A stretch of 63,099 bases of DNA, filler included, from Folioceros fuciformis (taxonomy: Eukaryota): NCBI GenBank assembly GCA_049999805.1. It is 6 parts of 6 records of this genome, joined end to end, with 100 filler letters (N's around TTAATTAATTAA, not from the genome) between each part and the next. Parts side by side here need not be neighbours in the genome. Positions count along the whole stretch, not along the records: positions 41,708 to 47,760 come from JBNGIO010006485.1; positions 47,861 to 61,554 come from JBNGIO010006486.1; 4 more parts are not named here. One strand, given 5' to 3'. A program made the translations under genes and the position numbers. The notes below the pieces were generated by a model. It did no database searches, had not been told where the DNA came from, and was given only the letters and a program-made list of their open reading frames with translations. The stretch's first letter is position 1, and each line of letters starts with the position of its first letter. Below are positions 23,647-59,541 of this stretch, in pieces.

Positions 23647-24225
23647 TCAAAATGTGACCCCATTCTCAGATGCAGGGGGTTCTGTTCTTCGTGGGCATAG
23701 GTTGAGAGAAGTGAGTGCAACAGCAAGGTCACGTACTTCTCTATCCAGCAAATCTAACTTGCAAGAGATTCGAACAAGAAGGTTGGTCGTATCTCTACCT
23801 CTATCTGTAGATATGCTTTCAGACCTATGCTGCAGTCTTGTATGAATTCTAGCCTGCCAATTTAGTGATTGCAGTTCTGCCAGCAATCGTGAATGAACGT
23901 GCCTAGTGTAATTCCGTGATCTGTGTGTATGTCTAGGACGACCTGCAGTGGGCAGGTTTGGGAAATGCGAGCTAATGTGATAGGAACCAGGCCCTTGATG
24001 GCTGTGATTGAGCGCACGATACAGATGGCTGCAGGCAACACCCGTATCCACTGCACACCGCCTGGGCTTGGCGCACCAATTAGGAAGTTTTCCACAAATT
24101 TTCCTCCAGCAAGAATTCCAGTTCGCAGCTGCCGATTGTAGTGCCCGGGATTGGACTGACTGGAACTCTGATTGCTTCCAGGCACGCTGATTCTGGCGTT
24201 GGGATCTTCGATCGCGTCGAGGCAT
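23647..24225 (-). CDS. Copia-2 accessory ORF-B (192 aa, MPR start, C-terminal heptad-like helix)
   Basis: Open frame between PBS and gag; its stop lies ~20 nt before the first in-frame gag ATG (~23626). Positionally equivalent to the ORFs at 46804-47502 and 52749-53390. Confidence 0.6.
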   Translation of the reverse strand: MPRRDRRSQRQNQRAWKQSEFQSVQSRALQSAAANWNSCWRKICGKLPNWCAKPRRCAVDTGVACSHLYRALNHSHQGPGSYHISSHFPNLPTAGRPRHTHRSRNYTRHVHSRLLAELQSLNWQARIHTRLQHRSESISTDRGRDTTNLLVRISCKLDLLDREVRDLAVALTSLNLCPRRTEPPASENGVTF

Positions 24226-24450
24226 GATGCAGGCCTCGAGAGGCGCTGCGATCTCTCCTAGATGCTAATGTCTTGACCTGCTCTTCTAAGATGAATGCTC
24301 ACGAGATTGTGCATTCTCCAAGAATCCATTCTCAAGCAAGATGCAGGCCAAGAAAAAGCGATTAATGGCTCTGATACCATATCGCATTATGGCAACATAG
24401 GAGTGTGAACCTCCAAAGTTTGGGGTAGTAGTTTGTTTTGGTTGAAAAAG

Positions 24451-35380: not shown

Positions 35381-35480
35381 NNNNNNNNNNNNNNNNNNNN
35401 NNNNNNNNNNNNNNNNNNNNNNNNTTAATTAATTAANNNNNNNNNNNNNNNNNNNNNNNNNNNNNNNNNNNNNNNNNNNN

Positions 35481-41607: not shown

Positions 41608-44600
41608 NNNNNNNNNNNNNNNNNNNNNNNNNNNNNNNNNNNNNNNNNNNNTTAATTAATTAANNNNNNNNNNNNNNNNNNNNNNNNNNNNNNNNNNNNN
41701 NNNNNNNCTGAGCTCCCACTGCCGGCGATGGCCCTGACCTGTGACTTCGATGCCGCTGTGTTGCTGGCGCTGGTTCTTGTGCTACAAGCATGTGCTGTTC
41801 GTTGACGCCGACCTTGCGGTGTGTGCGCGGAGTTGCTAAGTTGCATTCCCCGAAGGAGGAGCTTGAAATTGCTCACTCCCACTGACGGACTGATTGAGGG
41901 ATGCCACAGCTTGCGCCCGACGCGCCTTTTCTGGTTCCTTCCCAAGTGCCTGGACAAGTTTATCAGATATGGCGAGTCCTCCCACTGCCTGCTTGCCTTG
42001 GTGTTCTCCGGCCAATCCTGCATACTGACTTGTGTTCTGGCGTGTGTTGGTGCAGAACCGTGATGGCGCTGTACATCTAGGATGCCCTATAGACAGTTCA
42101 AGAAAGCTTGAAGATTCCTGTATGCATTTGCAGCTGTCTTTCTAGCTAGGTGAAGTAGGTAGGCTTAGGTATTCGTACACTCCACTAACCCCATGGCTCT
42201 TGAGAACTTTTCGTGCTTGTCCCGGGGCAGAGGCTTGGTTAGCAGGTCAGATGTATTCTCGTGTGTGGACACATATTGCAGACTAACATGCCCCTCTGAT
42301 ATGACCTGCCTGATGAAGTGGTGTTTAATATCGATATGTTTAGTGCGTGCGTGCATTACCGGATTTTGAGAGAGAGCGATTGCTGATTGGTTATCGCTAA
42401 GGAGTGGTGTCGGGGCAGCTTGTGTCTCCCCCAGTGATGCTAACAACTCCCGGCAATGGAGAATATCCTGGGCAGCTGTCGTAGTGGCTATATACTCAGC
42501 CTCAGTAGAGGAGAGAGCCACCACTTGCTGTTTCTTCAAGTGCCAGGCTATGACTGTTGACTGATGTTCGTCTTGGCCTAGCATAAGGCAATGTGCTGAG
42601 ATGGATCTTCTACTGTCAGTGTCCGCTGCCCAGTCAGCGTCACATTAGCAGGTGAGAAGCAGTTTTTCAAGTCTCTTGGAGTATAGCAGTTCTAACCTTG
42701 GTTTGGTACCAAGATACCTTAGTATCCGCTGTACAGCATGCCAATGGGCAGAACCATAGTTTGACAGGAATTGGGATGCAACCCCAACAGCATGTGACAG
42801 CTCTGGACGTGTCCAGTTCCTGAAATATATGCATACTCCCACTGCCTGCCTGTACGGTATGGATTCCATTTCCTGCCTTTCCTTTTTAGTCTTTGGACAT
42901 TGTGCAAGGGTTAGTTTATCTCCGACAGCCATAGGTGTGGCCACTGGCTTTGCATGCTGCATCCTGAATCTAACCAGCGTTTGCTGAACAAACGTTGACT
43001 GATGTATGAATATTGTGTGTGCAGCAAGATTCTGTTGAATCTGTATGCCAAGGAAGAACGTTAGCTGGCCCAAGTCCGACATAGAGAATTCTGAGGTCAG
43101 AAAACCTTTTACTGTTGCCATGTGCTTTGGGCCACTGGCCATGATGACCGCATCATCAACATACAGGGCCAGGTACACTACTCCATCCTTGTCATGCAGT
43201 TTATACACATTAGAATCTGCTTCACTTTGTACGAAGCCACATTGCTTGAGATAGGCGTCAATACGCTTATACCATTCTCTAGGGGACTATTTCAGTCCAT
43301 AGATGGTTTTGATAAGTCGGCAGACTTTCTGTGGATGCTTAGGATCCACATAACCCTCTGGTTGCTTCATATAAATAGTTTCTTCTAGTTTTCCGTTTAG
43401 GAATGCGGTTTTAACATCCATGTGCTGTAACACGAAATCATACTGAGCAGCCAAGGCCAGTAATGCTCGAACAGATGTAGCCCTCACGACTGGAGAGAAC
43501 GTCTCCGTATAATCTAACCCTTCTACCTGACTGTAGCCACATGCTACAAGTCTTGCTTTGTATCGGGCTATGGACCCATCTGCTGCCAGCTTGCTCTTAA
43601 AGACCCATTTGCATGTGACAGCCTTCCTACCTGCAGGGAGATCCTCAAGAACCCACGTTTTATTATCCATAATGGATTTATACTGAGACTCTATGGCCTC
43701 CTTCCATTTTACTTTGTCTAGTGAATTTATGGCCTCTTGATAAGACTGAGGGTCTCCTGCATCCATGGGATCAGCATCCTCTTGGACTAGAAAGGTTTTG
43801 TATGTAAGACGCGGCTCCTTCCACTCATCTAGAGACAAGGTATGCACACGGCTGCTCCTTCTGAGTTCAGATTCCTCAGCTGGCGCACTTTCTGCTACAG
43901 CTTCTGTATGTGGCTGATCTTCCTCACCATCGCTTGCATTGTGCACAGAATCGAAGGAGACAGGCTCATCTTCATCACTCTCATTGTCAGGGAACACGCT
44001 TGGTTCCTCATCATCATCCGACAGGTCTGTGTATGTAGATGGGTGTGGAGCCTGACTGGATGATGGAGTGGAGGACTGAGGTACACTAGTCTGCTGCTGT
44101 GCACTAGCCTGAGACGTAGATGTAGACCCAATTTCTAAGGTGATGTCATGAGGCTCGTCAGTTTGTTCTAAGGTAGAATTCTGGTGAGGTTCATTGGCTG
44201 GTGGTGGATGTAACGGCAGCTGCTCATTAAAGATTACGCTTCTAGCATGTGTGATGGTTCTAGACACAGGATCATACAGCTTATAGCCTTTAACTCCTTT
44301 TGTATAACCAATAAAAACATACTTTCGTGATTTGTAATCTAACTTTCTGCGCTGTTTCTCTGCAAGGTGTGCATACGCAGGGGACCCAAAGATCCTCAAA
44401 TGATTGATCCTTGGTTTATGATTAGTCCACCTTTGAAATGGAGTGGCACCCTCAAAGGCTTTTGTGGGTAGCCTATTTCTGATGTATGCAGCTGTTGCAA
44501 CTGCCTCACCCCGTAACCGCGTGATAAACCAGAAATTTGAAGCATAGACTTGGCGGCTTCTTGAAGGTGTCTATTGTTTAACTTGGCAAGAGGGTTTTGA

Positions 44601-46803
44601 GAAGATGTGTAAGGTACAGTGTACTATTTGCTTATCCCCAGCTCCTTACAATATTCCTCAAAAGCATTTGAACAGAATTCTCCTCCTCCATCACTGCGAA
44701 GGCACTTAACCAGTTCGCCTGTTTGTCTTTGTGCATAGGGAACGTACTCCTGGAAGCAGCTCAAGGCTTGGCTTTTGTGTTTGAGCAAATATACCACCAC
44801 ATAGCGGCTCCAATCATCTAGAAAAGACAAATATAGAGCGCACCTCCAAAGGTGGCTGTGGACATGGGGCCACATAGGTCGATATGTACAAGTTCCAGCA
44901 ACTTTGTTGCTCTTGTGGGATTCTTATTAGCATAAGGTAGCCGCTTGTGTTTGCCGAAGACACATGATTTGCAGAACTGCTTGTCTTCAAACTTGAGCAT
45001 AAATTTTTCTCTATACAGATTATTTCTGGCCACCATAGATTTCAGTTTATCGAAATTGACATGTGCCAGGCGGCAATGCCATAGCATGGCCTGCTGCTGT
45101 TGTTTTTCCTCTTGACTTACATGCACATGTGCTCTTGCAGGATGTGTGCCAAACTTAGAGGTAAAGTTGACCTTGTACAGGTCATGCAGCGGGGTACCAA
45201 CTGCAACTACTTTGTCTCCCAACCGTGGATCAGTAATGTGACATTCATCTCCACTAAACGAAATGTCAAGGGGATGTTGAGCTGTGAACCTACGTATAGA
45301 CACTAGGTTCTTTGCCATGTCAGGCACATGTAATACATCACATAGGTGGATGGTAGTCTTATCTGCAAGGACAACTGGAATAGTACCGACTCCCTCTATG
45401 GTGAGACCTCTATCATCCCCTAGCTTGACTGATTGTCCAGGTTGAACAGGTCTATAATTGTCAAAAGAATCTCGTGTATGACAAATATGTGCAGAGGCAC
45501 CGAAGTCTAAGAACCAGATGTGTTTTTCTGATGCAGATGACACAAGGCAGACTGCAAGTATGGTGTTGGTTTTTCGAAGTACCACATTGGTTTCAGGAGG
45601 TGCAGTCTTTTTAGGCTCACCAGCCTTTTTCTTTCTACACTCAGCCTCCTAGTGGCCAGGGATCAAACACCAATTGCAGGTGCCCTTTTTCTTATTGGTG
45701 GCAGCAGCTGCTCTCTTCTTAGAATTTGTGTTACCACTGCTGCTACTAGCAGGCCAAGCTTGACGTGGAGGATGCCTCAGAGGGCCTTTAGTGTAAAGCA
45801 CCTGTTAATGGGGTCTCCTTTGTGAGAGGAACCACCCTTGCTTGTATGCCTAGTAGACTCTTCTTCAAGAAGAGCACCAATGAGGTCAGACAGTGTGACA
45901 GGAGGAGTCTGGCCTGCTAGTGTGGCCAGTCCTATTTGACGAATAGATGCACTATAGTTGCTGACAAAAGTTCGGTAGCTCTCATGAAGTGACAGCAGCA
46001 GAGCCACGGCATCTTGCATCTCGGTCGTGGTGGTGCCACTTGAGGTAAGCTTAGATCTCAGTTGCCTGAATCTAATCACGTGCTGCTCGACTGATTCACC
46101 TTCCCGCATTTTGCAGTTATATAAGTCCCGGGTTGCATAGACCAAGGATGTTCCATTTACAACTTGGTATACTTGAGAGAGAGAATCCCAGACAGCCTTT
46201 GTCGATGCCACATCTCTCGTGTGATGCATCATTGTCCCATCAAGCGCTGACTGGATAATCCTAATCCACGTAAGTCCTTCTTAACCTACGCTGCAATGTC
46301 AGCAGGTGGTGAACCTTGTGCAGGTTTTACGGAGGTTCCATCAACAACCTCCCATAGGTCATGTTCCTTTAGAATGGTCTGAACCCGTAACGACCATATG
46401 TCAAACTGTGAACCAGTAAATCTATCTTTTTCTTTAAAGTCTATTTTAATGTTATTCACAGTTGTGTAGTTGGTGACATTTTGTGGATTAGCCATTGTGC
46501 TAAATGTTGTGATTAATTGTGCTGCACTGGCAGCTTGAGTCACCTGTTCTACTTGTGTTTGCTGAGGTACAAAAGCAGCCTATGCTACATGAGCTAATTG
46601 TGCTGCGTGTAAATTTGCAGGTACGACATTGGTACTTCCCTGCGATGATGATGACTGAGCAGGTTGCTGTGACTGTGGTGCAAGTCCTAATGGATCTACT
46701 GCTAATGGAGGCAAAGAAGGATCCTGATTAGGCCTCTTGGGTGTCTTGCGCAATGGGATTCTGTTGCGCCAATTTCTGTATGACATGGACAGGTGTCATA
46801 ACT

Positions 46804-47502
46804 TCAGATATCCAGAGGTGCTTCGACACCAGTACTGCTTGGTTCCATACTGGTCACAGCATCCTTCAGCGCAGCTACCATTTTTAGGAAGTCCGGTGTT
46901 AGATAATCTTGTTTGGGTTGCTCATCCGGCTTGATAAGTTTGAATGACAGGCTAGCAAGGTGTTGAGACACATGAAGGATAGACCTACTGAGGTCTACTA
47001 TGTCATTTGTAATGACCTCTAAGGCTGACTGATTTTTATCGGCCTGTGCAATGGGAAGATCATGTGTTCCTGCTAGCAATTGTTCACTAGATGTAGGAAA
47101 GTGGCATGTATTAGAACATTGACTGCATACAGGCTTCTTTCCGTGACTAGCTACAGTTTGTGCATAGGGAATTTCTCTACTAACACAAGTTCTAAAGTTT
47201 GCTAGTGCAGGAATCTCAGCAGGTTTTGGGTGCTGTGGTTTTGATGGTGCAGAAATGTAGCGGTACTCCCAGTGCTCGTCTCTGACTCCAAAGATGCACT
47301 CTTCGCACTGTGGGAAACGATCAAACACCACACCTACGTCTTTTACTTGTGTGCTCCTTGCTTTGTGATCACAGGCAGGCAAGAATGTGTCATCCAAGTA
47401 TTGATCCAAGTGTGTCTACGGTCTTCCCACAGATTTCTTGGAGGATTGCAGTCCAGGCCAGCCAGAATGCACCTTATTTCTGCTACCACGGCACCTCGGC
47501 AT
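46804..47502 (-). CDS. Copia-4 accessory ORF-B (232 codons, MPRCRG..., one internal TAG at codon 29)
   Basis: ATG at 47502 is in frame with ORF 46804-47409. The stop lies 17 nt before the next ATG (46786, start of the gag region). Confidence 0.6.
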
Positions 47503-47507
47503 CGCAA

Positions 47508-47690
47508 TTAATAGTTGTAGTAATGGTACACAGCATCTGCCAAGAAGGTACTCGCCATGTCGCCAAATCTGCTCAAGGCAATTTTTAATGCTGCAATCAG
47601 GGATCGGAAATCGTCATGCTTGAGATTTCTGATGTAGGAATTGCTTTTGCAGATGTCGCATCTGTCAGCGGGCGGCACGGCACAGTCCAT
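47508..47690 (-). CDS. Copia-4 accessory ORF-A (60 aa, CxxC)
   Basis: MDCAVPPADRCDICKSNSYIRNLKHDDFRSLIAALKIALSRFGDMASTFLADAVYHYYNY; starts 6 nt after the PBS; clearly homologous to 53400-53594. Confidence 0.75.
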   Translation of the reverse strand: MDCAVPPADRCDICKSNSYIRNLKHDDFRSLIAALKIALSRFGDMASTFLADAVYHYYNY

Positions 47691-48192
47691 CCCTGTGCTC
47701 TGATACCATCTAGAACTAGGATCGATGGCAGATAGATTGCATAAAGGATTCATAGATTGGNNNNNNNNNNNNNNNNNNNNNNNNNNNNNNNNNNNNNNNN
47801 NNNNTTAATTAATTAANNNNNNNNNNNNNNNNNNNNNNNNNNNNNNNNNNNNNNNNNNNNATGTTTATTATTAATGCTGGATATATAAAAGCCTATTTAC
47901 ACCTTTACTCCCACTTAGCCAGCATTGCCTTGAGTTGAGTTCACCAAAAAAGGTTTCGCAGTCGGCTTACTTCTGAACTAGGCAGCTGAGCATAGACATG
48001 GCAAAGTCCCTGTTTACTTGGATTCCTCCCACTGCAGCTTAAGTCATTGATAGCTTCTGAATGCATGCCTTTGTTGACGCAGAACCATGGTGGCGCTGCA
48101 CAACAAAGATGTCTTCCAGGAGATACTATCCTTCATGAAGAACCGCTGCAGGATTAGAGTTTAAGTGCTAGCTAGGTGAGTAGCAAATGTGC

Positions 48193-51100
48193 TTAGGACT
48201 CTGGGTCCTGTACTAACCCCATTGCAGATGCAAACTTCTCATGCTTGTCTCTGGGAAGTGCCTTTGTGAGCAGGTCTGCAATGTTGTTGTGAGTTGAGAC
48301 AAACTGCAGATTAGCATGCCCATCATAAATTACTTGTCGGATAAAATGATGCTTGATTTCGATGTGTTTTGTCCGGGCATGCATAACCGGGTTCTGGGCA
48401 AGAGCTATGGCAGATTGGTTGTCACTCAGAAGAAGTGTTGGAGCCTGCTGAGCTTCGCCAAGTGAGGCTAATAATTCTCTGCCATGTATAATATCTTGGG
48501 ATGCCGTTGTTGCAGAGATGTACTCTGCCTCCGTTGAGGACAGAGCCACTACTGGCTGCTTTTTACTATGCCATGAAATAATTGTAGCTTCATGCTCATC
48601 CTGTCCGAGCATTAAGCAGTGTGCAGAAATAGAACGGCGACTGTCAGAGTCGGCTGCCCAATCCGCATCACAATAGCAGATCAGTAGCAAATTACTTGGT
48701 CGCTGCTTGTACAAAAGACCAAGTCTGGGTGTGCCACCAAGGTAGCGCATGCATCTCTGAACAGCATGCCAGTGTGCCGAGCCGTAGTTGGAGAGGAACT
48801 GGGAGGTTACTCCTACAGCATGTGATAACTCGGGCCGAGTCCAGTTCCTGAAATAAATAAGCACTCCCACTGCCGGCCTATAGGGGACTTTTGCCATTTC
48901 CAGCCGCTCTTGCTCAGTTTTTGGACACTGTTCTAATGTAAGTTTCTCTCCTGTTGCCATGGGTGTTGTAGCAGGTGTTGCATTCTGTAATCTAAAACGT
49001 GCAAGGACCTGAACAACAAATTGTGCCTGGTGGATAAAGATGGTGTGATTACCCAGATTCTGCTTGATCTGGATTCCTAAGAACCAGGTTAGTTGACCTA
49101 AGTCAGTCATGGAGAACTCAGATGAAAGGATTCCTTTCACCTTGTTCATTTGTGCCGGGTTGCTAGCAATTATGACTGCATCGTCTACATACAAGGCTAG
49201 ATAGGCAACACCATTTTTATCATGAAGTTTGTAAACATTTGAATCAGCACTACTTTGGACAAAACCACACTTTTTCAGATATGTGTCAATTCTCTTATAC
49301 CACTCACGTGGTGATTGCTTTAACCCATACAGAGCTTTGATTAATCTGCATACCTTGTTTGGATGCTTGGGATCGACATACCCTTCTGGTTGGCGCATGT
49401 ATATAGTCTCCTCCAAGTCGCCATTTAAGAAGGCTGTTTTAACATCCATGTGTTGCAATAGGTAATCATGCTGGGCAGCTATTGCTAACAAGGTGCGAAT
49501 GGAGGTAGCTCGGACTACTGGAGAAAACGTCTCCTGGTAGTCAAGTCCCTCAACCTGGCTGTAGCCTCGGGCAACCAGCCTAGCTTTGTATCTCGCAATT
49601 GTTCCATCAGCAGCACGCTTCAATTTGAATACCCACTTACAAGTCACCGCCTTCCTGCCAGGTGGTAAGTCTTCAAGCACCCATGTCTTATTATCCATAA
49701 TGGACTGATATTCAGATTCGATAGCAGCATGCCATTTGTCCTTCTCTGGAGAATTAATAGCCTCCTGGTATGACTGGGGCTCGCCCATGTCAAATGGAGT
49801 ACCCTCTTGGACCAGGAAGCTTTGATATGTCAGTGGTGGAGTATGCCACTCGGCTGGTGATGTAGTATGATGCCTGGAGCTTCTTCTAAGTACCTGCTCT
49901 GAGTCAGGTTCAGGTATGACCTGTGACACATGCAATGGCTGTTCAGGTTCGGGGGTCTCAGCTTGCTCTTCACTAACTGCTTCGACTTCATCGCCAGGGA
50001 AGTCAGTGGGTTCTTCTTCACTATCACTATCTAAGGATGAAGATGGGTGTGAAGAGCTAGAAGGTTGAGAATCATTAGCAGGCTGAGAGGTAGAGACAGC
50101 TGTTAGGTCATCATGATCATCACTCATGACGTTATCAAGGACAGGAGGTGCATCTAATTGGTGCTGACTCAATGCAGAGGTAAGTAGCATCTTTTCATTG
50201 AAAACTACACTACGTGCATGAATGGTAGTTCTAGACACTGGATCTAGAAGCTTATAGCCTTTAATACCTTCGGTGTACCCCACAAACACATATTTCTTTG
50301 CCTTATAGTCCAACTTCACTCGTTGTTTCTCTGCAAGGTGTGCATATGCGGGTGATCCGAAGATTCGTAAATGGTTAATCCGAGGCTTGTGACTAGTCCA
50401 TCTCTCAAATGGCGTAGAGCCAGTGTAAGCTTTGGTAGGCAGCCGATTTCGGATATAAGCAACTGTGGCTACTGCCTCACCCCAGTAGCTTCGAGTAAGG
50501 CCAGATACCTTTAGCATTGCCTTGGCTGCAGACTGGAGATGTTTATTATTCAGTTCAGCCAAGGGATTTTGTGAGGAAGTATAAGGAACGGTCAGTTGAC
50601 GCTGTATCCCCAGCTCCTTGCAATAATCCCGAAATGCTTCTGAGATATATTCCCCGCCATTGTCACTGCGCAGGGTCTTGAGTTGCTCACCAGTTTGCCG
50701 TTGAGCAAAGGAGACATACTCCTTGAAGCAGCCTAGAGTTTGGCTCTTGTGCTTAATAAGATAGACCACAACATACCGGCTCCAGTCGTCAACAAAGGAG
50801 AGTATGTAAAGAGCTCCACCAAAAGTAGCTGTAGACATGGGGCCGCACAGGTCAGTATGAACAACTTCAAGCAGCTTGGTGGCCCGTGTTGGATTTTCAT
50901 CAGTATAGGGAAGGCGCTGGTGTTTCCCAAATACACATGCTTCACAGAACGGCTTGTCAGTAAACTGAAGCATGAACTTCTCTCGATAAAGGGAGTTGCT
51001 GGCCACCATTGCTTTTATCTTGTCGAAGTTGGCATGACCAAGTCGGCAATGCCACAACATAGCTGCATTGTACTGTGGGGCCTCTTGACCGACGTAAACA

Positions 51101-52737
51101 TGTACTCGGGTAAGAGGAAGACCTAGCTTGGATGTGATATTTAGTTGGTACAAGTCATGCAAAGGAGTACCAGTAGCTAACAACTTATTCTTATGTTGTG
51201 GATCTGTGACTGTGCATTGCAGACCAGTGAAAGACACATTCAGTGTGTGTTGAGTGGTCAGCTTGCGAACAGACACCAGATTTTTAACCATAGAAGGTAC
51301 GTGAAGGACTTCTTCAAGAACTAGTGTGGTTCTATCACTTAGAACAACGGGAACTGACCCCACGCCTTCTATCATGAGGCCACTATCATCTCCAAGCAAG
51401 ACGAACTGACCTGGTGGGACTGCCTTGTACTCACAGAAGGATTTCTTGCAGTGACAGATGTGGGAAGACGCACCTGAATCTATGAACCAGACATGTTTGT
51501 TGGAAGCAGTAGAAACCATGCATACAGCAAGCAATGTATTCGTCTTGCGCTGTACCACATGAGATTCTGGTGGCACTGTCCTTCTAGGTTCATTGTTCTT
51601 CTTCTTGCGGCATTCAGCTTCCCAGTGGCCAGGTATGAGACACCAGTTGCAGGGTCCCTTCTTTTTGGCTGGAGTTGGCTGCGTATGTTTCTTGGATGTA
51701 CTGTTGGCGGTGTATGATGTCCAGTGCTGCCTTGGCGGTTGTCTCCTGGGCCCCTTGTTTGCGTAGAGTGCCCGTGTGGAAGACTCTCCTCGGGAGGAGT
51801 TGCCGCCTTGATTTACAGTCCTAGTGGACTCTTCCTCGAGAAGAGCTCCAATTACATCCGCCAAAGTAACGTCAGGTTGTTGTCCAGCAGGTGCATTCTG
51901 TGCTGCAAGTCTTAAAGCTGAACTCTGGTTGCTGACGAAGGTACGATAGCTAGGAGGAAGAGAGAGAATAAGGGCCACGGCCGCCTGCATCTCTGTGGTC
52001 TTCGTTCCGCTAGAGATAAGCTTCGATCGTAGCTGCCGAAACTTCACAACATGCTGCTCTATTGGTTCATTCTCACGCATTTTGCAGGTGTAGAAAGCTC
52101 TTGTAGCTCCAACCAAAGAAGAACCATTACTGACTTGGTATGTATGTGTGAGAGAATCCCATGCTTCCTTTGTATTCTCCACATCTTGTGTATGTGACAT
52201 CATTGATCCATCCAAGGCAGATTGAATCACTCCAAGTGCTCGCAAATCGAGTTTTTCCCAAGCTTCGATTGCAGCAGCAGTGGCAGTAGCAGGAGGTTTT
52301 GGTACTGTCCCGGTGACGACTCCCCACAGGCCATTTTCCTTAAGGATCGTCGAGACTCTAAGTGACCATATATCAAACTGTGTGCCTGAGAAACGATCCT
52401 TCTCCTTGAAATCTATCTTCAGGTGTGTGACAGCCATGTTGAGATGCACCTGGGTTTGAAGCACCTGATTTGCAAGTGTGCGTGCTACTAACGCAACTAA
52501 CTGTGCTTGCTGTCGTCGTGCGTTTGCAAGGGCTTTTGCTAAACGTGCTCTCTGAATGCGGTCAAGTGTGGGATCTACTGTGTGAGAACTACCTTGTGAA
52601 GAGGACGGTGATAAGAGACCAAGTGGATCAGCAGGGATTGGTGGAGGTGAAGTGCTCCGACCAGTGCCTTGATCCGTAGGTTTTGGTATACCTGTGCCCT
52701 TGCCTCTGTCAGCCCAACTTCCACGTCCTTGTGACAT
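48193..52737 (-). CDS. Uninterrupted Gag-Pol polyprotein (1514 aa from ATG 52737)
   Basis: CNWCLIPGHWEAEC knuckle, WFIDSGAS protease, LWHCRLGH..CEAC, integrase HTDLCGP/RSDNGGEY/QNPLAE, RT LYVDD, RNase H DADWA/EAEY/SDN/ADLLTK. Copia domain order. Confidence 0.97.
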   Translation of the reverse strand: MSQGRGSWADRGKGTGIPKPTDQGTGRSTSPPPIPADPLGLLSPSSSQGSSHTVDPTLDRIQRARLAKALANARRQQAQLVALVARTLANQVLQTQVHLNMAVTHLKIDFKEKDRFSGTQFDIWSLRVSTILKENGLWGVVTGTVPKPPATATAAAIEAWEKLDLRALGVIQSALDGSMMSHTQDVENTKEAWDSLTHTYQVSNGSSLVGATRAFYTCKMRENEPIEQHVVKFRQLRSKLISSGTKTTEMQAAVALILSLPPSYRTFVSNQSSALRLAAQNAPAGQQPDVTLADVIGALLEEESTRTVNQGGNSSRGESSTRALYANKGPRRQPPRQHWTSYTANSTSKKHTQPTPAKKKGPCNWCLIPGHWEAECRKKKNNEPRRTVPPESHVVQRKTNTLLAVCMVSTASNKHVWFIDSGASSHICHCKKSFCEYKAVPPGQFVLLGDDSGLMIEGVGSVPVVLSDRTTLVLEEVLHVPSMVKNLVSVRKLTTQHTLNVSFTGLQCTVTDPQHKNKLLATGTPLHDLYQLNITSKLGLPLTRVHVYVGQEAPQYNAAMLWHCRLGHANFDKIKAMVASNSLYREKFMLQFTDKPFCEACVFGKHQRLPYTDENPTRATKLLEVVHTDLCGPMSTATFGGALYILSFVDDWSRYVVVYLIKHKSQTLGCFKEYVSFAQRQTGEQLKTLRSDNGGEYISEAFRDYCKELGIQRQLTVPYTSSQNPLAELNNKHLQSAAKAMLKVSGLTRSYWGEAVATVAYIRNRLPTKAYTGSTPFERWTSHKPRINHLRIFGSPAYAHLAEKQRVKLDYKAKKYVFVGYTEGIKGYKLLDPVSRTTIHARSVVFNEKMLLTSALSQHQLDAPPVLDNVMSDDHDDLTAVSTSQPANDSQPSSSSHPSSSLDSDSEEEPTDFPGDEVEAVSEEQAETPEPEQPLHVSQVIPEPDSEQVLRRSSRHHTTSPAEWHTPPLTYQSFLVQEGTPFDMGEPQSYQEAINSPEKDKWHAAIESEYQSIMDNKTWVLEDLPPGRKAVTCKWVFKLKRAADGTIARYKARLVARGYSQVEGLDYQETFSPVVRATSIRTLLAIAAQHDYLLQHMDVKTAFLNGDLEETIYMRQPEGYVDPKHPNKVCRLIKALYGLKQSPREWYKRIDTYLKKCGFVQSSADSNVYKLHDKNGVAYLALYVDDAVIIASNPAQMNKVKGILSSEFSMTDLGQLTWFLGIQIKQNLGNHTIFIHQAQFVVQVLARFRLQNATPATTPMATGEKLTLEQCPKTEQERLEMAKVPYRPAVGVLIYFRNWTRPELSHAVGVTSQFLSNYGSAHWHAVQRCMRYLGGTPRLGLLYKQRPSNLLLICYCDADWAADSDSRRSISAHCLMLGQDEHEATIISWHSKKQPVVALSSTEAEYISATTASQDIIHGRELLASLGEAQQAPTLLLSDNQSAIALAQNPVMHARTKHIEIKHHFIRQVIYDGHANLQFVSTHNNIADLLTKALPRDKHEKFASAMGLVQDPES

Positions 52738-52748
52738 ATACAAGGTCC

Positions 52749-53390
52749 TTACAGTAGTATGCCTTCACCATCACCAGATTCAATGAGAGCTGTTTGATCA
52801 CAGAAGCCGTGGAGAGTTACTTGAATAGCCCTGATCATTTTCATCATGTCGGACTCTGGTTCTTCCTGTGAGGTTTGAAGAGGTGCATCCGAGTTCTGAA
52901 CCGATGCGGTCTGGATTGGGACCGACGTGTTGGACAAAGTGTACTTAGATATGGAATTCTTCAAGAAAGTGCCCAAAAGATTCTTAATGTGACCAGCGAG
53001 AGACTGAATGTGAATATTAAGACCTGAAATTTCTCTAGACAGGTGCACAGATCGTTGACGGGCATGATCTGCGTGTGATTGCAACAGAGCACAAATTTGT
53101 GAAGTCTGTGAGTGCACTAGGTTATAAATTTCTACAAACAATTTGTCTGGAGTCGTTGTGAAGGCAAATGGGGCAGATTTCTTGACGCGCTGACAACGCT
53201 GGACTGTAGGACGTCTAAATTGCTGCTGATTATGACGCCTATGACCAGGATGTGTGTGAGAAGGATTGAAATTGCAGTGTGATTCAAGGAAACTACACAA
53301 ATTGTGCAAGTGCTTGTTCTCCGAAGTGCTGCAACTTCCAAAAAACAAATCTCTTGGCGCCTGCTGCCCACGACCTCGCGCTCTCGGCAT
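52749..53390 (-). CDS. Copia-5 accessory ORF-B (213 aa, MPRARG..., His/Cys-rich N-half, heptad-like helix)
   Basis: Fully open; begins 9 nt after the ORF-A stop and ends 11 nt before the gag ATG. Confidence 0.7.
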   Translation of the reverse strand: MPRARGRGQQAPRDLFFGSCSTSENKHLHNLCSFLESHCNFNPSHTHPGHRRHNQQQFRRPTVQRCQRVKKSAPFAFTTTPDKLFVEIYNLVHSQTSQICALLQSHADHARQRSVHLSREISGLNIHIQSLAGHIKNLLGTFLKNSISKYTLSNTSVPIQTASVQNSDAPLQTSQEEPESDMMKMIRAIQVTLHGFCDQTALIESGDGEGILL

Positions 53391-53399
53391 AGCGATCAG

Positions 53400-53594
53400 T
53401 CAGTCATAACAATGGCTGACAACGCCTGCTAGGAACGCACCAGCCAGTGCGCCAAACCTGGTCAAAGAAACTCGCAAGGCTTCGATGGCAGCACTAAAAA
53501 CATTATGGCTAAAATTTCTGATGCAATTGCTGTTTTTGCAGATTTGGCAGGCGCGCAGCGGCGATGCGTTGGCGCGCGGCGGCGCGCTCTCCAT
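53400..53594 (-). CDS. Copia-5 accessory ORF-A (64 aa, CxxC)
   Basis: MESAPPRANASPLRACQICKNSNCIRNFSHNVFSAAIEALRVSLTRFGALAGAFLAGVVSHCYD; ATG 4 nt after the PBS. Confidence 0.75.
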   Translation of the reverse strand: MESAPPRANASPLRACQICKNSNCIRNFSHNVFSAAIEALRVSLTRFGALAGAFLAGVVSHCYD

Positions 53595-53885
53595 CTATGG
53601 CTCTGATACCATAGAGACGTGCTAGGATCGTGAGAGCGTGAGTGGATTAGCAGGCAAGCTTGTCGAGAGAAGAGAATGAATTAAATTATTCGTGGCCGTG
53701 TGGTCACTTTTAAGGAACTGCTGTGAAACGTCGTGTGTCCCGTGGCGTGAGTGACCGATAGTTGTTTGGGGTCAAAATACCCCTTAATTACGTCACTTAG
53801 AATCTACCCGATTACTATCTCGGCTACTTACTTATTTAATGTTTATTATTAATGCTGGATATATAAAAGCCTATTTACACCTTTA

Positions 53886-56800
53886 CGCCACTCTACTCAT
53901 CTGCAGGGTAGAAGAAGCGCTGAAGAGCAAAATGGTGCAGAGGAGGAAACGTGCTCTATCCAGCTAGAAGCGCCCTGTTGAGCATCACCCTGAGGCAGGG
54001 CATCCAGACTCAAGCGCTGCAGAGGCAGAGAGCTCCGGAGATCCCTTGCAACCAAATGCACACCAGCGACCAACTCAAGCTGACAGAAATATGTTTTGTC
54101 ACATGCACGATGTCCTGAAGAAAAGCGACAAACTGGTGAAAGCCTTAAAGGCAGCAAGTTGCAAGACATATGAGCTACAAGACCTGCTGTCTCAAAGACC
54201 TGACCCTAAGAACCCAGACCACCCTTTGACAGAGGAGTGTCAACACATGGTGAAGAAGCTGATTTTGCTAGGCTACGTCTCAGAGGTGGACATAGAAAGA
54301 CCATACAGTCTTGCACATGTATACTAGTAAGTGACAATGACTATCTTACCTAACCTGTGATGCAGCAAGTCCACGATTTGACAAGCTAGTTGTAGATTCA
54401 TCCACTGGACTGCCGCTTACAAACCTTGCTTGTGGCAGGAAAGATGAGAACAGCAAGGTGACAAGGATAACAGGACAGGCACCTGGACCCTCACAACCTA
54501 TTGACGATAGACCTATTGCACCGTAATAGCAAAAGGGCTGCATCCTTCCAGTTCCAGGCAAGTTCCTCTAGTCAGGTTATATCAAAGGAAGTAGGCATAG
54601 CAAACTCCTTGAGCCCAAGGGCTTCAACATGCTTGTAATGCTTTATCTTGGGTAACCCCTTGGTTAATATATCAGCCGTGTTGCTATCAGTGTGCACATA
54701 CTCGACCTTGACAACTCCTCTTTCTGCCACATCAGGGATATAGTGATGGTAAAGCTCAATGTGTTTTGTTCGCACATGAAACCTTGGATTGGAGACCAGG
54801 GCAATTGCACTCATGTTATCACAAAGCAGCTGAGTCGGTGTGGTCTGAGATAAGTGGATGCCTTCCAGAAATTGCCTTTCCCACTCCGCTTCTTTACAAG
54901 CGTCCGTTAAAGCCTTGTACTTCACTTCTGTGCTTGAAAGAGCTAATGAAGTTTGTTTCTTACAGGACCAATTAATGGATCCTGAGGAAAGCTGGAACAC
55001 ATATGCCAAAAGGCTACGTCTTGTATCTGCATCAGACGCCCAATCTGCGTCCGCCCATGAGTTAAGTGTCATCTCCTTACGCCCACTTGTTGTGAAGTGA
55101 AGACCAAGGTGTACTGTGCCTTTCAAATAACAATATATTCTCTTGACAGCAGCCCAATGGGCTTTGCCAGGATTCTTCAGAAACTGACTTACAATGCTCA
55201 CAGAGTATGACACATCAGGCCTAGTACAGTTGGCAATAAATATGAGACACCCCACTGCCTCGGCATAAGGAACAGTCTGCATGTCCAGAATTGTTGATGC
55301 TTCAGTAGGGCACATAGCTGCTGTGAGTTTCTCTCCCACTGCCGAGGGAGTGGATACTGGACGGGCAACATCAAGACTAAAGCACTTCAAAATCTCCTTA
55401 AGGTACTTTGTTTGATGTAGAATTATGGTGCCTTAAGCTCTGTCCCTCAGAATCTGAATCCCTAGACAAAACTGTAGCTCACCTTGATCCATCATTTCAA
55501 ACTCCGCACGGAGCATGTCCTTAGCCTTATTTAACATTGTGACACTATTGCTGAGCAGGATGGCATCATCGACGTATAACGCAAGAATAACAAAGAGTCC
55601 GCCTTGAGCAAAATAGAAGACGTTGGAGTCAGCAGTAGACTACACGAAACCCATGTTTTGAAGATATTTCATTATCCTTTTATACCATGCCCTGGGACTT
55701 TGCTTCAGACCATACAGTGTTTTCAGCAGTTTGCATACACGCTGTGGCCATTTCTTACTAACAAACCCCTCATGCTGCATCACGTAGAGTACCTCCTCAA
55801 GTTCACCATGAAGAAACGCAGTACATACGTCCATCTGATGGACTTCTAGATCAAACTCTGTAGCCATTGCGAGTAGGATACAAATAGAGGGAGGCTTGAC
55901 TACAGGGGAGAAATTTTCCCCATAGTCCACACCAGGTATTTGACTAAACCCACGTGCAACCAGCCTAGACTTGTACCTAGCTATAGTGCCATCTGACTTC
56001 AACTTAGTTTTGAATACCCATTTGCAGGTAATGGGCTTTTGTCCTGGCGGTAGATCAACTAGCTCCCATGTATTGTTCTTGATTAGGGTGTTATACTCAT
56101 CGTCAATACTAACCCTCCAGTGGGCTCCATTGGGGCCATTGAGAGCTTCAGCATAAGACTGAGGATCAGGCCTAATGTTTGGGACAGTTAAGTCCGCAAG
56201 ATGAGCTAATTTCCGAAAGTCAATAGGAGCATAAGGTGTTTCTATCCATCTTGACCTTGGCCTTCTGTCTCTTGTAGGATAACGAAGAGAGGGAGGGTCC
56301 ATAGGGAGAACTGCTCCCACTGCTTCTGTTGGACCTAACCCATCACTATCAGAATGATGGGAAGTATCATTGTCTTGAGAGATTGACTCACCATCAGAGC
56401 TGTCAGAATGTGTAAAGTCAGCATCAGCCAACAATTCTGGTTGAGGATCAGCTTGAAGGATAGACTAAGCTTTAGACCCAATATCTCCATTTGCCAAGTC
56501 GATAGCAGCACCGACTGTTTCACCATCAAAATTTGGATATACTACTGGAGGAGGTGGTGGTACTTTAGGCAAACCGGGTCCTAGATTGACAGGGACTAAA
56601 GGGTTGACTGTATCACCAAACACAACCTCTGAGTCAGCGTAACCATGGTCACCAGGAGGGTTAGCACCCTCTAGAAGCTCTTGCATGGGTTCAAACCTTG
56701 GTGAGATGAGTTCACTAAATATGACACTTCTAGCCAACACTACCTTGTGAGTTCGAGGACTGATCAATTTATATGCCTTGCTTTCTTCACCCAGAAAGAT

Positions 56801-59100
56801 ATAAGGGACTGCCCTATCATCTAACTTCTTTCTCTTTTCTGCAGGGACATAGACAAAAGCTAGAGACCCAAAAACTCTCAAGTGAGATAAGTTGGGCTTA
56901 CGCCCCATAACATCTCATAGGAAGTCTTCACACGAATAGCAACTGTAAGCAGCCTATTCAGTATATATGTAGCTGTATTAATTGCATCTGCCCAGTACCT
57001 TTTTGGAAGAGATGCATAAGATAGCATACTCCAAGTCATTCCCATGAGTGTCTGATTTTTACGTTCTGCCACCCCATTTTGTTGTTGTGTGTAGGGGACA
57101 GATAGCTAGTGAATAATACCACATTTGTCAAAAAGTGCATCATACTTGTGGCCGACAAATTCACCTTCGTTGTCTGTCCTTAAACACTTAATTAGATAGC
57201 CAGTTTGACCTTGAACCATAGGTATCCAGGATACTATCTGTTCAAAGGCATCACTCTTGTATTTCAAAGGGTAAGTCCATGTATATCAAGAGTAATCATC
57301 TGCCAGTGTTAGATAATACTCTGCTCCTCCTAGAGATGTAGTCTGCAATTTTCGTGCGATGTCTGCATGAACTAGGGCGAGTAGAGATGTTGCTCTTGTG
57401 GTGCTTTTATTCCTAAAGGGAAGTTCTTTTTGTTTGGTTAGGGCACAGGCACTGCAAACTGGAAGAGACTTAAAGCACGAGGGCAACTTTTCTCTATAAC
57501 AATCAGACATTGTCATAAGGTCAAGTTTGGTTTTATTAACATGCCCAAGTCTAGCATGCCACAACTTTGCCTGATTTTGTGAAGTAATTGCATAGGCCCG
57601 GTCTAACCTCTTGGATGTAGTGATAAGTTGATACAGATCACCCACAACTGCAGTTTTTGCTAAATGATGTTCATAATCATCTAAGTTGTAAATGTAGCAA
57701 TGGTCAGCTTCAAATCGGAAACCATACAATTGGCTACATGTGACTGCCCGAATAGAGATCAAGTTCTTTGACAAGGAGGGGACGTAAAGAACATCTTCCA
57801 ACTGTAGTGACTCTCCATTCATTAGAGGTATGATAACACGACCAGTACCTTCGACTGCTACTCCTCTGAGCATCTCCCACATACACTGATTGTGGGTTTT
57901 TGGATGTCCAGAATGTCATGAAAAGTTGACAGTTATTGCAAACATGTGTTGTGGCACCTGAGTCAATGAACCATAAAGAAGAGAGCTCACGTGTGGCAGT
58001 AAAGCAGACAGTTAGAGCTATTGTAGCACTCTTGTGTGTTGACTGCTTAGGTTCTTTAGCAGCAACATAAGCTTCTGGTTTAACATCCTTCTTGAGATCA
58101 CCAGCCTTTTTCTTACGACACTCTCGTTCCCAATGACCGGGAATGCCACACCAATTGCAAGCTCGTGTTCTTTTGGCAGTCGAGGGTGAAGGTGAGTTTG
58201 TTTTCTTTCCTCCTTTGTCCTTTCCCCTCACAAACGCCTTGCCCTTTGTTGCAAACTGCACTTTTTTGCCTCGATTCCTAGAACCTGATACAAATTTGTG
58301 ATGACTTTGTTCCTCTTGTAGGAGAGCGCCACTCACATTGTTGAAGCTTACAGTCGCTGGATTGCCAGTAGCAACGGCAACATACGAAGATTGTAGTGCA
58401 GCATTCTGTCCAAAGATGAACGTTTGAAAGGAAGGTGGCAAGCTTGATAGCAACTGGGCAACAACATCAGTTTCAGACATTGTGCTACCAAGTGAGACTA
58501 ACTGTGCCCTCAGGTACCTAAACTTGGTAATGTGGGTACCCAAGTTATCCCCTTCCTTCAATCGCAACCCATAGAACTGATTGCGTACAGAGACTAGTGT
58601 CAAAATGTTTTGAACTTGGTATGTGTTTTTGAGCTGATCCCATACTGCAGCAGCTGTAGGGAGGCTTTCAACTTCTGTGACTGTGGTTTCTCCAAGGCCA
58701 GAGAGCAAGATGGCAAAGGCCACCTTGTTTCCCTTTTTGAATCTGTCTTTGACATCTTGTGCATCATTTGGTATGAGAACAGGGATCGTGCCATCGACAT
58801 ACTCCCACACATCACGAGCATCCAGAAATGCTTTCATACGAGCTCTCCAGCTCTCATACTTGGTATGTGTCCCGTCAAAGCGATCTTTTTCCTTGAAGTC
58901 TCCTCCATAGGAAGTGTTCTGAACTGCCATGTTAGTGATGACAGGAATGATCGGTGGAGCCAATGGTGGAGGTGTAAACTTAGGGAACTGAGCAGTGAGA
59001 GACCGAAAGAACTGAGACTTGGTGTTTGAATCAATTTCTGGATCACTATCTATATCCTCAAACAGCTAGGCTAGACCTGACATATAAGACAGAAACTAGA
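53886..59100 (-). mobile_element. Ty1/Copia element (Copia-6), degenerate; Copia-5 abuts its 3' region
   Basis: Gag FKEKDRF..CNWCGIPGHWEREC, WFIDSGAT, LWHARLGH, QNGVAERKNQ, RT YVDD, RNase H DADWA..ADILTK ending at 54572. LTRs and PBS not identified. Confidence 0.88.
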
Positions 59101-59541
59101 TAGACGTGTTGATCATACTAGAGCTAAATTAAGACGGGAGCTTGAGAAGACAAGGATGAGTAAATGTCCTGGCCTGTCGTGCTTCCTCTTGGTTTAGCTC
59201 TGCTGTATTCATCAACAAGTTAGTTAGCAACTCATACGTACACACAGCATGCCTGCAGGGGTCATAAGGTCATCAAAAGTGAAACGACAAATTAACATGA
59301 CGAAACGGTATGTTTGTGACCTAAAATGATGCATGCTGCAAAAACTGAAATGACAAAGATATGACGAGTTGTGAATACAGGCTAAGTGCCCCAAAGTCAA
59401 GCGGCAATGCTGACACATGGCCTTCACCACCAACCGTCAACTCTACAAGACACTCCTATTGGAAGCTGGCAAGAGACAGCGCCGTGTGTGGCGCAATCTG
59501 CCAAGCTCTAGCAGTGCTGAGTCTCGCGCAAGGCTGATTGA

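Follow-up and report, generated by a model that had tools for sequence, protein, structure and literature searches.

Ty1/copia elements of Folioceros fuciformis were found to carry ORFs of their own in the leader between PBS and gag, which is ~0.85 kb long and filled by sense-strand ORFs: a small one close behind the PBS (ORF-A) and a longer one (ORF-B) that ends shortly before the gag AUG. ORF-A is a genuine small ORF whose peptide is conserved under purifying selection, and the frame of ORF-B has been kept open though its sequence has diverged past recognition in three elements. The explanation that we favour, with a probability of roughly 0.5, is that these are lineage-specific sense 5' extra ORFs of Ty1/copia elements and that the full-length RNA would be read as a polycistronic message, ORF-A first, ORF-B second and gag-pol third.

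Two leader ORFs precede an intact gag-pol

The window, i.e. the whole stretch of 63,099 nucleotides analysed here, holds Copia-5 and Copia-4 on different contigs that are split by a linker and are not genomic neighbours (Table 1). Copia-5 is a Ty1/copia LTR retrotransposon with the domain order gag, protease region, integrase and RT; its Pfam rows are Retrotran_gag_2 (130-307), Pol_BBD (417-496), gag_pre-integrs (556-606), rve (624-720), SH3_retrovirus (782-849) and RVT_2 (1016-1261), and RNase H has no Pfam row of its own in the 1514-aa ORF. Because this gag-pol is intact, the layout with two leader ORFs belongs to a potentially competent element. The outer 51 nt of the 5' LTR (53839-53889) recur at 47861-47911 with 98% identity (repeat family D7), and the comparison of the two LTRs is confined to these 51 nt, the 3' LTR surviving no further before the end of the contig. 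Copia-4 is decayed, its gag-pol being 65-74% identical to that of Copia-5 past the N-terminus by tblastn; between the two elements INT-RT is 71% identical and the gag N-terminus 46%.

The PBS 12-mer TGGTATCAGAGC, which we take to match the 3' end of initiator tRNA-Met (tRNA-iMet type), has four exact matches in the whole window compared with a mean of 0.36 in shuffles, and its variants with up to three mismatches are at chance level (58 versus 59.6 expected in the window). A third Copia, more distant from Copia-4 and Copia-5 and absent from the preliminary description of this DNA, also has a PBS and an ORF-B-like ORF. A fourth, decayed Copia with a PBS has stops in every leader frame, and a relic of ORF-A sought in the leaders of the third and fourth elements was not found (best z=1.55). 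The element at 54611-58933 yielded no LTR pair.

Table 1. Positions in the window of the Copia features described in the text
Feature	Coordinates	Strand	Remarks
Copia-4 gag-pol, decayed	42180..46786	-	five tblastn pieces, frames shifting
Copia-4 ORF-B frame, 232 codons, start MPRCRGSR	46804..47502	-	one in-frame TAG (47418..47416); ends 17 nt before gag ATG 46786
Copia-4 ORF-A, 60 aa, stop TAA	47508..47690	-	ATG 6 nt past PBS
Copia-4 PBS TGGTATCAGAGC	47697..47708	-	exact 12-mer
Assembly linker N44-TTAATTAATTAA-N44	47761..47860	.	between Copia-4 and Copia-5 contigs
Copia-5 3' LTR start	47861..47915	-	truncated at contig end; repeat of outer part of 5' LTR
Copia-5 gag-pol, intact, 1514 aa	48193..52737	-	single ORF
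Copia-5 ORF-B, 213 aa, start MPRARGRG, pI 9.2	52749..53390	-	9 nt past ORF-A stop, 11 nt before gag ATG 52737
Copia-5 ORF-A, 64 aa, stop TGA	53400..53594	-	ATG 5 nt past PBS
Copia-5 PBS TGGTATCAGAGC	53600..53611	-	exact 12-mer
Copia-5 5' LTR, ~279 nt	53612..53890	-	outer boundary approximate; abuts PBS
Third Copia ORF-B-like ORF, 192 aa, start MPRRDRRSQRQNQR, pI 11.2	23647..24225	-	ends 20 nt before gag ATG 23626
Third Copia PBS	24368..24379	-	element has no ORF-A

ORF-A is conserved as a peptide

The preliminary description had placed an ORF of ~60 aa 4-6 nt after the PBS in both elements, in agreement with the 5 nt (Copia-5) and 6 nt (Copia-4) measured here. Since the Copia-5 LTR contains no ATG between 53886 and 53613, the Copia-5 RNA has ORF-A as its first real ORF; an ATG at 53612 starts a mini-ORF of five codons, the TAG of which adjoins the ORF-A ATG. 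Alignment of the two ORF-A peptides revealed 53 residues without internal gaps at 45-46% identity (tblastn E 1e-13), with a Smith-Waterman z of 26 and none of 500 shuffles scoring as high, and the sole indel, of 15 nt, keeps the frame. The C-x2-C...H...H pattern described previously is present among the 27 invariant columns: C16, C19, H30 and H61 (Copia-5 numbering) are invariant in both sequences and C24 and C62 are not conserved. The conserved span runs from residue 16 to 63 and is not limited to the last residues; the variable N-terminus of Copia-5 ORF-A holds a 38-nt GC-rich array.

Analysis of substitutions in frame gave pN 0.31 and pS 0.72 (pN/pS 0.43, two sequences only), compared with pS/pN values of 0.39/0.41 and 0.51/0.34 in the off-frames (pN/pS ~1.0 and 0.68). 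Random re-placement of the 63 nucleotide differences yielded a BLOSUM sum of 64 +/- 17 versus 129 observed, a value reached in 0 of 5000 permutations, and 18 identical residues versus 24 observed (p=0.014). The constraint on ORF-A is about as strong as that on the N-terminal third of gag. The conservation statistics of ORF-A are drawn from two sequences and the comparisons of ORF-B, below, from three.

The leader beside the PBS commonly carries priming, dimerisation and packaging signals, as in Ty1 and retroviruses, and the conservation could then reflect such cis-acting RNA or DNA signals, with the ORFs incidental. RNAalifold does predict pairing between the PBS and the ORF-A 3' end, with four compensatory pairs of 46; this pairing was rejected, its duplex energy being at chance with 24-33% of shuffles as good. 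Against an explanation by signals, Rfam gave no match, the peptide is preserved far beyond random placement with no such effect in the off-frames, and open frames of ~200 codons in three unalignable leaders would be unexpected. We regard it as very unlikely.

The element would thereby encode a small protein, ORF-A, that may fold as a helical hairpin held together by Cys2His2. It possibly binds metal, as judged from the four Cys/His residues conserved in both sequences. For self-association of ORF-A, a complex prediction with two copies and Zn, run without controls, scored 0.02. The AlphaFold model has a helical hairpin at 30-47 and 49-63 at low confidence (pLDDT 55). The preliminary description had looked to fold comparisons for both proteins, and Foldseek with the ORF-A model returned no matches.

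ORF-B stays open while its sequence diverges

An ORF of ~210-230 codons starting with MPR had been described within 10 nt of ORF-A. In Copia-5 this was borne out (9 nt, 213 aa), and ORF-A and ORF-B lie there in a common frame with TGA and three codons between them. In Copia-4 the spacing stood (ATG at 47502, 5 nt past the ORF-A stop, in a frame different from that of ORF-A) and the single ORF did not: a TAG at codon 29 interrupts ORF-B, whose length is 232 codons if this stop is included and 203 if measured between stops. The distance from the end of ORF-B to the gag ATG, previously given as 11-17 nt, was 11 nt in Copia-5 and 17 nt in Copia-4. Over all three elements ORF-B has 192-232 codons, begins with MPR followed by Arg-rich residues and stops 11-20 nt short of the gag ATG. 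The ORF-B frames of the three elements contain 0, 1 (Copia-4) and 0 stops, whereas any one of the five remaining frames has 2-19. The chance of such a frame having no stop is 1.8e-5 (Copia-5), 1.3e-5 (Copia-4) and 1.1e-4 (third Copia).

The ORF-B proteins themselves could not be aligned. tblastn detected no match between the Copia-5 and Copia-4 copies, and pairwise Smith-Waterman comparisons gave z=1.6, -0.2 and 0.0, the first (Copia-5/Copia-4) equalled by 36 of 500 shuffles. No tandem repeats were found in ORF-B, and codon usage exceeded the no-stop null in one case out of three (z=1.0, 2.8, 0.2). Contigs of two other species span 52531-53159 (52 differences) and 52661-53078 (39 differences) with zero gaps. 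The 28 listed cross-species differences that fall in ORF-B create no stop and are distributed 8/9/11 over codon positions 1/2/3; among these listed differences 10 of the 24 changed codons are synonymous versus 6.0 expected, a weak excess (P=0.054). Since the ORF-B proteins are not conserved between elements and the differences are spread 8/9/11, the purifying selection proposed in the preliminary description holds for ORF-A only. Contigs are denser over 53328-53475, to which we give no weight, as the depth of contigs is no measure for ranking regions within a gene. The AlphaFold model of ORF-B has a helical middle and is otherwise of low confidence (pLDDT 41). We propose that ORF-B may encode a basic accessory protein that evolves fast, of the 5' extra ORF kind, and that it may double as a translated bridge that delivers ribosomes to the gag AUG.

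These properties would also suit a purely cis-regulatory arrangement, in which ORF-A is a conserved-peptide uORF that stalls or gates ribosomes and ORF-B a translated spacer, neither acting as a free protein. The constraint on the ORF-A peptide fits an effect of the nascent peptide as well as it fits a folded protein, both structure predictions are of low confidence, and ORF-B is spacer-like in that frame and end are kept in all three elements with unalignable sequence and differences even over the codon positions. Moreover, 5-6 nt separate the ORF-A AUG from the PBS, and initiation there and tRNA annealing should be mutually exclusive. However, the conservation of ORF-A extends from residue 16 to 63 and includes the paired Cys/His, the MPR/Arg-rich start is retained in all three ORF-Bs, ORF-B has a weak synonymous excess, and the third Copia does without ORF-A. 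We consider a cis-regulatory role without any protein function unlikely.

How ribosomes may reach gag

The stop-to-start gaps measure 5-20 nt at all five junctions, namely 9 and 11 nt in Copia-5, 5 and 17 nt in Copia-4 and 20 nt in the third Copia. In the polycistronic reading that we favour, coupled termination-reinitiation would carry ribosomes from one ORF to the next. Reinitiation in eukaryotes after ORFs of ~200 codons is normally inefficient. From the ORF-A start to the gag AUG, Copia-5 has nine more ATGs versus 12.8 expected (p=0.16); leaky scanning to gag was rejected because the ATGs of this leader are not depleted.

The same count bears on the possibility that the ORFs are real and gag-pol is translated from a separate leaderless RNA (spliced, internally initiated or processed), with the full-length RNA expressing ORF-A and ORF-B and being packaged. 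Two upstream ORFs and nine further ATGs should stop scanning ribosomes, the undepleted ATGs of the intact element count against leaky scanning, and spliced RNAs are in use in Drosophila copia and in retroviruses. On the other hand, inspection by eye revealed no conserved canonical donor/acceptor pair near the PBS and the gag AUG, and a separate RNA does not require the tight 5-20 nt spacing seen at every junction. This route seems to us rather unlikely. In a sequencing run guessed to be RNA, one contig matched over 32 nt, in gag only.

Fusion of the reading frames would offer another way into gag, either with ORF-B as an N-terminal extension of Gag made by programmed frameshifting or with ORF-A and ORF-B as one readthrough protein. 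In all three elements gag is at -1 relative to ORF-B, the ORF-B and gag frames overlap by 13 nt in Copia-5 and 16 nt in the third Copia, and the two leader ORFs of Copia-5 share one frame; but every ORF-B has its own ATG, and in Copia-4 a TGA that follows the ORF-B stop closes the gag frame (overlap -11 nt). A -1 frameshift was rejected, as the two short overlaps show no X XXY YYZ heptamer and Copia-4 has no overlap, and so was readthrough from ORF-A into ORF-B, the frame being shared in one of the two elements only. Fusion is thus extremely improbable.

The most far-reaching version of the polycistronic reading is a truly tricistronic Copia with virus-like termination-reinitiation, in which a conserved Cys2His2 helical-hairpin micro-protein comes first, with its AUG abutting the PBS. 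Ribosomes loading on ORF-A would then preclude priming by tRNA-iMet and vice versa, so that the RNA would be switched between being translated and being reverse transcribed. Taken with all these parts, it appears to us decidedly unlikely.

Homologue searches

Pfam assigned no family to ORF-A or ORF-B at E<=0.1 (best E=0.15), and word-indexed protein searches gave no match for ORF-A, ORF-B or gag residues 1-420. Exhaustive HMMER with the ORF-A alignment found no homologue among 1.84 billion representatives; three matches (E 1.9e-5 to 3.1e-4) were judged spurious, being to internally repetitive proteins matched in multiple stretches. The ESM Atlas held no usable match for ORF-A, and its best match for ORF-B, a bornavirus P24 cluster with a score of 0.79, was under the threshold for a lead and was discarded. 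Sequence searches of the PDB with both ORFs reached E=0.3 at best. Scanning metagenomes by ORF-A patterns yielded 135 matching stretches with no relative among them, and scanning by the INT-RT alignment yielded 80 Copia loci at 32-54% identity; when those 80 loci were searched by tblastn with the two leader ORFs and the N-terminus of gag, the best E was 0.44.

Relation to known extra ORFs

The preliminary description had taken Copia leaders to be normally non-coding, a premise that has to be narrowed, as 5' forward extra ORFs are already a recognised class in LTR retrotransposons according to the plant survey of Neumann et al. 2019 (PMC6317226). ORF-A and ORF-B have the properties by which this class is defined: they are sense ORFs located between LTR and gag, are distinct from the polyprotein and do not consist of tandem repeats. 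Among 5410 plant Ty1/copia elements the survey counts 582 with extra ORFs no shorter than 250 codons; its scope is green plants only, and the cut-off of 250 codons, a matter of convention and not of biology, lies above both ORF-A (60-64 codons) and ORF-B (192-232 codons) (PMC6317226). Like the extra ORFs surveyed there, those described here are additional, fast-evolving and devoid of shared domains, and the question raised by its authors, very fast evolution or independent acquisition, applies to them equally (PMC6317226). They differ in position from the lineage-defining env-like eORF-3'F of SIRE, which is located 3' of pol and which the survey gives for 74% of elements (PMC6317226), ORF-A and ORF-B being 5' of gag.

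Two leader ORFs in a Copia are an unusual layout, not an unprecedented one, with precedent among other LTR retrotransposons. Ogre is described with a 1527-bp ORF upstream of GAG (PMC2533021), and the Ogre ORF and the Tekay group-2 5'aORF resemble the present ones in being sense ORFs between PBS and gag that are lineage-specific, divergent and domainless; the Arg-rich start and helical middle of ORF-B likewise recall the eORF-5'F/5'aORF class. In contrast, Ogre and Tekay are Ty3/gypsy elements with single ORFs of 400-500 codons, whereas here Ty1/copia elements carry ORFs in tandem (64 + 213 codons) 5-20 nt apart. No sequence similarity was detected between the two sets, and the families of Ogre ORF1, Athila ORF-1 and Tekay 5'aORF (plant mobile domain, Athila ORF-1, Transposase_28) showed no homology in ORF-A or ORF-B.

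In having consecutive ORFs a few nucleotides apart on a reverse-transcribed RNA, the Copia leaders are similar to systems with CaMV reinitiation, RTBV leaky scanning and SART1-type stop-start (PMC5902531). The portion of that article on termination-reinitiation gives cases from RNA viruses and from non-LTR retrotransposons and none from LTR elements (PMC5902531). Unlike the SART1 type, the Copia leaders have no overlapping stop-start (AUGA/UAAUG), and unlike RTBV, the Copia-5 ATGs are not depleted as leaky scanning would need. We know of no transactivator for the leader ORFs of Copia. ORF-A further resembles the CPuORFs, short upstream ORFs with conservation of amino acids and not of nucleotides (pN/pS 0.43 for ORF-A, from two sequences). 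CPuORFs are regulators of host genes; unlike them, ORF-A belongs to a retrotransposon, sits directly beside the PBS and has another long ORF between itself and the main coding region.

It is well supported that the leader-ORF layout of these Copia elements is an anatomical variant and not a new element class. As far as the sequences indicate, ORF-A and ORF-B are lineage-specific 5' extra ORFs, of a class known elsewhere, that are possibly translated in succession from the genomic RNA. If they are expressed, they would define a Copia lineage with accessory genes of its own in the leader, a region normally kept for priming and packaging signals, and surveys restricted to green plants and to ORFs of 250 codons would be shown to overlook small conserved peptides such as ORF-A. 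If expressed, the leader would also provide a compact natural system for studying how eukaryotic ribosomes gain access to a third cistron.

Leader ORFs in the Copia elements of the window

The PBS TGGTATCAGAGC has four exact copies in the window (shuffle mean 0.36), each of them on the minus strand with Copia gag sequence downstream. In Copia-5, an intact Ty1/copia element, it is followed by a small ORF (ORF-A), a longer one (ORF-B) and gag-pol, a layout that the preliminary description had claimed for both Copia-5 and its relative Copia-4 and that we found in both, except that the 232-codon ORF-B frame of Copia-4 is broken by one in-frame TAG at codon 29. Copia-4 is decayed, its gag-pol being recovered as five tblastn pieces with shifting frames. 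The start of the Copia-5 3' LTR (47861-47911) is 98% identical to the outer 51 nt of the 5' LTR. No ATG was found in the 5' LTR (53886..53613 examined); the first ATG of the element (53612) straddles the junction of LTR and PBS and starts a mini-ORF of 5 codons (53595-53612, minus) whose TAG immediately adjoins the ORF-A ATG.

A third, more distant Copia element (PBS 24379..24368), with RT-RNase H ~49% identical to that of Copia-5 and a decayed gag-pol, carries an ORF-B-like ORF that the preliminary description had missed. ORF-A was not found there: 142 nt separate the PBS from the ORF, and a 23-codon ORF is not significantly ORF-A-like (best z=1.55). The leader of a fourth, decayed element (PBS 39995-40006) holds 6-10 stops per sense frame. 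Among PBS-bearing elements, an ORF-B-type frame is thus present in three of four and ORF-A in two of four. The leader ORF anatomy is real and non-random.

Coordinates of leader features, matching contigs and window joints
Feature	Position	Strand	Details
Copia-5 5' LTR	~53890 to 53612	minus	outer 51 nt repeated at 47861-47911
Copia-5 PBS	53611..53600	minus	exact
Copia-5 ORF-A	53594..53400	minus	64 aa, stop TGA
Copia-5 ORF-B	53390..52749	minus	213 aa, 9 nt after ORF-A, same frame as ORF-A
Copia-5 gag-pol	52737..48193	minus	uninterrupted 1514 aa, 11 nt after ORF-B, Copia domain order
Copia-4 PBS	47708..47697	minus	
Copia-4 ORF-A	47690..47508	minus	60 aa
Copia-4 ORF-B frame	MPR ATG 47502		5 nt past ORF-A stop; ends 17 nt before gag ATG 46786
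Third-element ORF-B-like ORF	24225..23647	minus	192 aa, MPR then Arg-rich; ends 20 nt before gag ATG 23626
Other-species contig	52531-53159		52 differences, 0 gaps
Other-species contig	52661-53078		39 differences, 0 gaps
Other-species contig	53223-53566		40 differences, 2 gaps
Linkers	24451-24550, 35381-35480, 41608-41707, 47761-47860, 61555-61654		N44-TTAATTAATTAA-N44, stops in all six frames
N100	62747-62846		further N stretch

Separate contigs are connected by the five 100-nt linkers, and feature neighbourhood across these or the N100 is an assembly artefact. Since a linker separates the contigs of Copia-4 (41708-47760) and Copia-5 (47861-61554), the two are independent loci; a contig end truncates each of them inside an LTR. 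Copia remnants are dense: the Copia-5 polyprotein, used as a tblastn query, picks up seven or more further fragments with 31-74% identity. Another Copia gag (ATG 58930), for which neither a PBS nor an LTR pair was found, is preceded by a 153-codon stop-to-stop frame (60003..59542, minus) and by a Cys/His-rich 64-aa ORF (59418..59224, minus), both of which may be leader ORFs. The sole host-type gene among 10 other long frames scanned is an uninterrupted 430-aa frame (9521-10813, plus), in which Pfam recognises the two domains of mannosylglycerate synthase (E 2e-133 and 3e-52). Since red algae use mannosylglycerate as an osmolyte, a red alga is a possible host.

Selection on the ORF-A peptide

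The proposal that ORF-A encodes a conserved peptide under purifying selection was borne out. The Copia-5 and Copia-4 sequences share 27 invariant columns (46% identity; tblastn E=1e-13; Smith-Waterman z=26, reached by none of 500 shuffles), and their single indel, of 15 nt, is in frame. Synonymous sites are saturated between the two elements (pS 0.70-0.83), and pN is 0.216 in INT-RT (71% identity), 0.305 in ORF-A and 0.387 in the gag N-terminus (46%). In the ORF-A frame pS was 0.72 vs a pN of 0.31, and the two shifted frames gave pS/pN of 0.39/0.41 and 0.51/0.34. When the 63 nucleotide differences were retained and their positions randomised (5000 trials), 18.0 +/- 2.4 identical residues were expected vs 24 observed (p=0.014), and the observed BLOSUM62 sum of 129 was never attained (64 +/- 17). 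Leader nucleotide identity is 0.46-0.66 across ORF-A and 0.22-0.48 thereafter; a cis-acting RNA signal as the cause of this conservation was unsupported by RNA analyses. From these comparisons, which cover two sequences only, we take the amino-acid sequence encoded by ORF-A to be under selection.

Judged by sequence, the predicted products of ORF-A and ORF-B appear to resemble nothing known: Pfam, two word-indexed searches, PDB sequences, the ESM Atlas and 80 distant metagenome Copia loci gave blank or sub-threshold results, and an exhaustive profile search gave three weak matches only, all repeat proteins. The fold search to which the preliminary description had looked (AlphaFold/Foldseek) brought no match for the ORF-A model either, Foldseek results being blank or below threshold. 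In that model (pLDDT 55) the N-terminus is disordered and is followed by a C-x2-C turn and a helical hairpin (30-47/49-63); the ORF-B model has helices at 81-150 (mean pLDDT 41). C16, C19, H30 and H61 of ORF-A are invariant in the two sequences and C24 and C62 variable; a Cys2His2 clamp sitting where the hairpin opens would, we infer, be geometrically plausible. Metal binding, silencing suppression and tricistronic translation, as proposed earlier, are putative.

ORF-B is a maintained frame with drifting sequence

The stop depletion that the preliminary description proposed to look for was seen in the ORF-B frames, which contain 0, 1 and 0 stops in Copia-5, Copia-4 and the third element, where each of the five remaining frames holds 2-19, the one exception being the Copia-4 stop; the chance of a stop-free frame is 1.8e-5, 1.3e-5 and 1.1e-4, respectively. 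All three ORF-Bs share an MPR/Arg-rich start and terminate 11-20 nt upstream of gag. Pairwise comparison of the three proteins revealed no significant likeness (z=1.6, -0.2, 0.0), tandem repeats were sought in ORF-B and not found, pI values are 9.2, 6.8 and 11.2, and codon usage exceeded a 'no-stop, same composition' null in one of three only (z=1.0, 2.8, 0.2).

Sequencing runs of two further species gave contigs that match the Copia-5 leader at >=80% likeness. Among the 40 differences listed of 459, 28 lie in ORF-B (codon positions 1/2/3: 8/9/11) and alter 24 codons, 10 synonymously and 14 non-synonymously, with no stops; local re-placement gave 6.0 synonymous codons expected vs 10 (P=0.054) and was stop-free in 47% of trials. 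ORF-B looks like a frame in which openness is maintained and the sequence is otherwise almost free to drift. Such a pattern is compatible with a largely disordered accessory protein that evolves fast or with a frame needing translation only. Contigs of these runs (X4 and X5) over 52531-53614, ~90% identical to the leader, had a k-mer depth of 468-1027, and the lowest-depth matched contigs 41-108; such depth, which is not copy number, would be consistent with a multi-copy family that bears this leader and has amplified recently.

Possible routes to gag translation

Frameshift fusion of ORF-B to gag was excluded in Copia-4, and the other two elements carry no visible slippery site; readthrough from ORF-A to ORF-B is feasible in Copia-5 only. 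Leaky scanning is unlikely in intact Copia-5, because the stretch from the ORF-A start to the gag AUG holds 9 ATGs vs 12.8 expected (p=0.16). The third-element frame (23650-24222, minus) holds 2 ATGs vs 8.3 expected (p=0.008), both near its 3' end, a scarcity absent in Copia-5 that may point to leaky scanning in the lineage of the third element. At all five junctions the stop and the next start lie close together (5, 9, 11, 17 and 20 nt), a spacing that coupled termination-reinitiation would exploit; PMC5902531 (Pooggin & Ryabova 2018) links LTR elements with frameshifting, whereas termination-reinitiation is assigned there to caliciviruses and non-LTR elements. Gag-pol could equally well be translated from a processed mRNA.

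Copia-5 Gag has an N-terminal extension of ~110 residues (52408-52737, minus), Pro/Ser/Gly-rich and then helical-looking, after which DUF4219/gag domains begin at residue 116. The extension is common to Copia-4, for which tblastn gives 38% identity across gag residues 1-177 and the aligned codons give 46%.

Relation to published extra ORFs

PMC6317226 (Neumann et al. 2019) defines eORF-5'F, -5'R, -3'F and -3'R and reports eORFs of >=250 codons in 582/5410 Ty1/copia and 3372/8453 Ty3/gypsy elements from 80 green-plant species; their proteins are highly heterogeneous. Copia elements otherwise vary little in structure, and the SIRE 3' eORF serves as the lineage marker. PMC7264820 (Vicient & Casacuberta 2020) describes aORFs up- or downstream, sense or antisense, mostly 3' of pol. 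Upstream cases include the conserved 400-aa 5'aORF of sunflower Tekay (gypsy), with NLS, alpha-coils and disorder (PMC11728184), and the Ogre ORF upstream of GAG (Medicago survey, PMC2533021). Searches of article full text yielded no Copia in which two 5' ORFs stand in tandem, and no conserved micro-ORF at the PBS; such a layout may already be catalogued in supplementary files or Repbase-type libraries. The leader ORFs belong to a known class, the 5' extra ORFs of LTR retrotransposons; within it, ORF-A is, as far as two sequences indicate, a constrained small coding ORF, and ORF-B a frame that is maintained but drifts fast.
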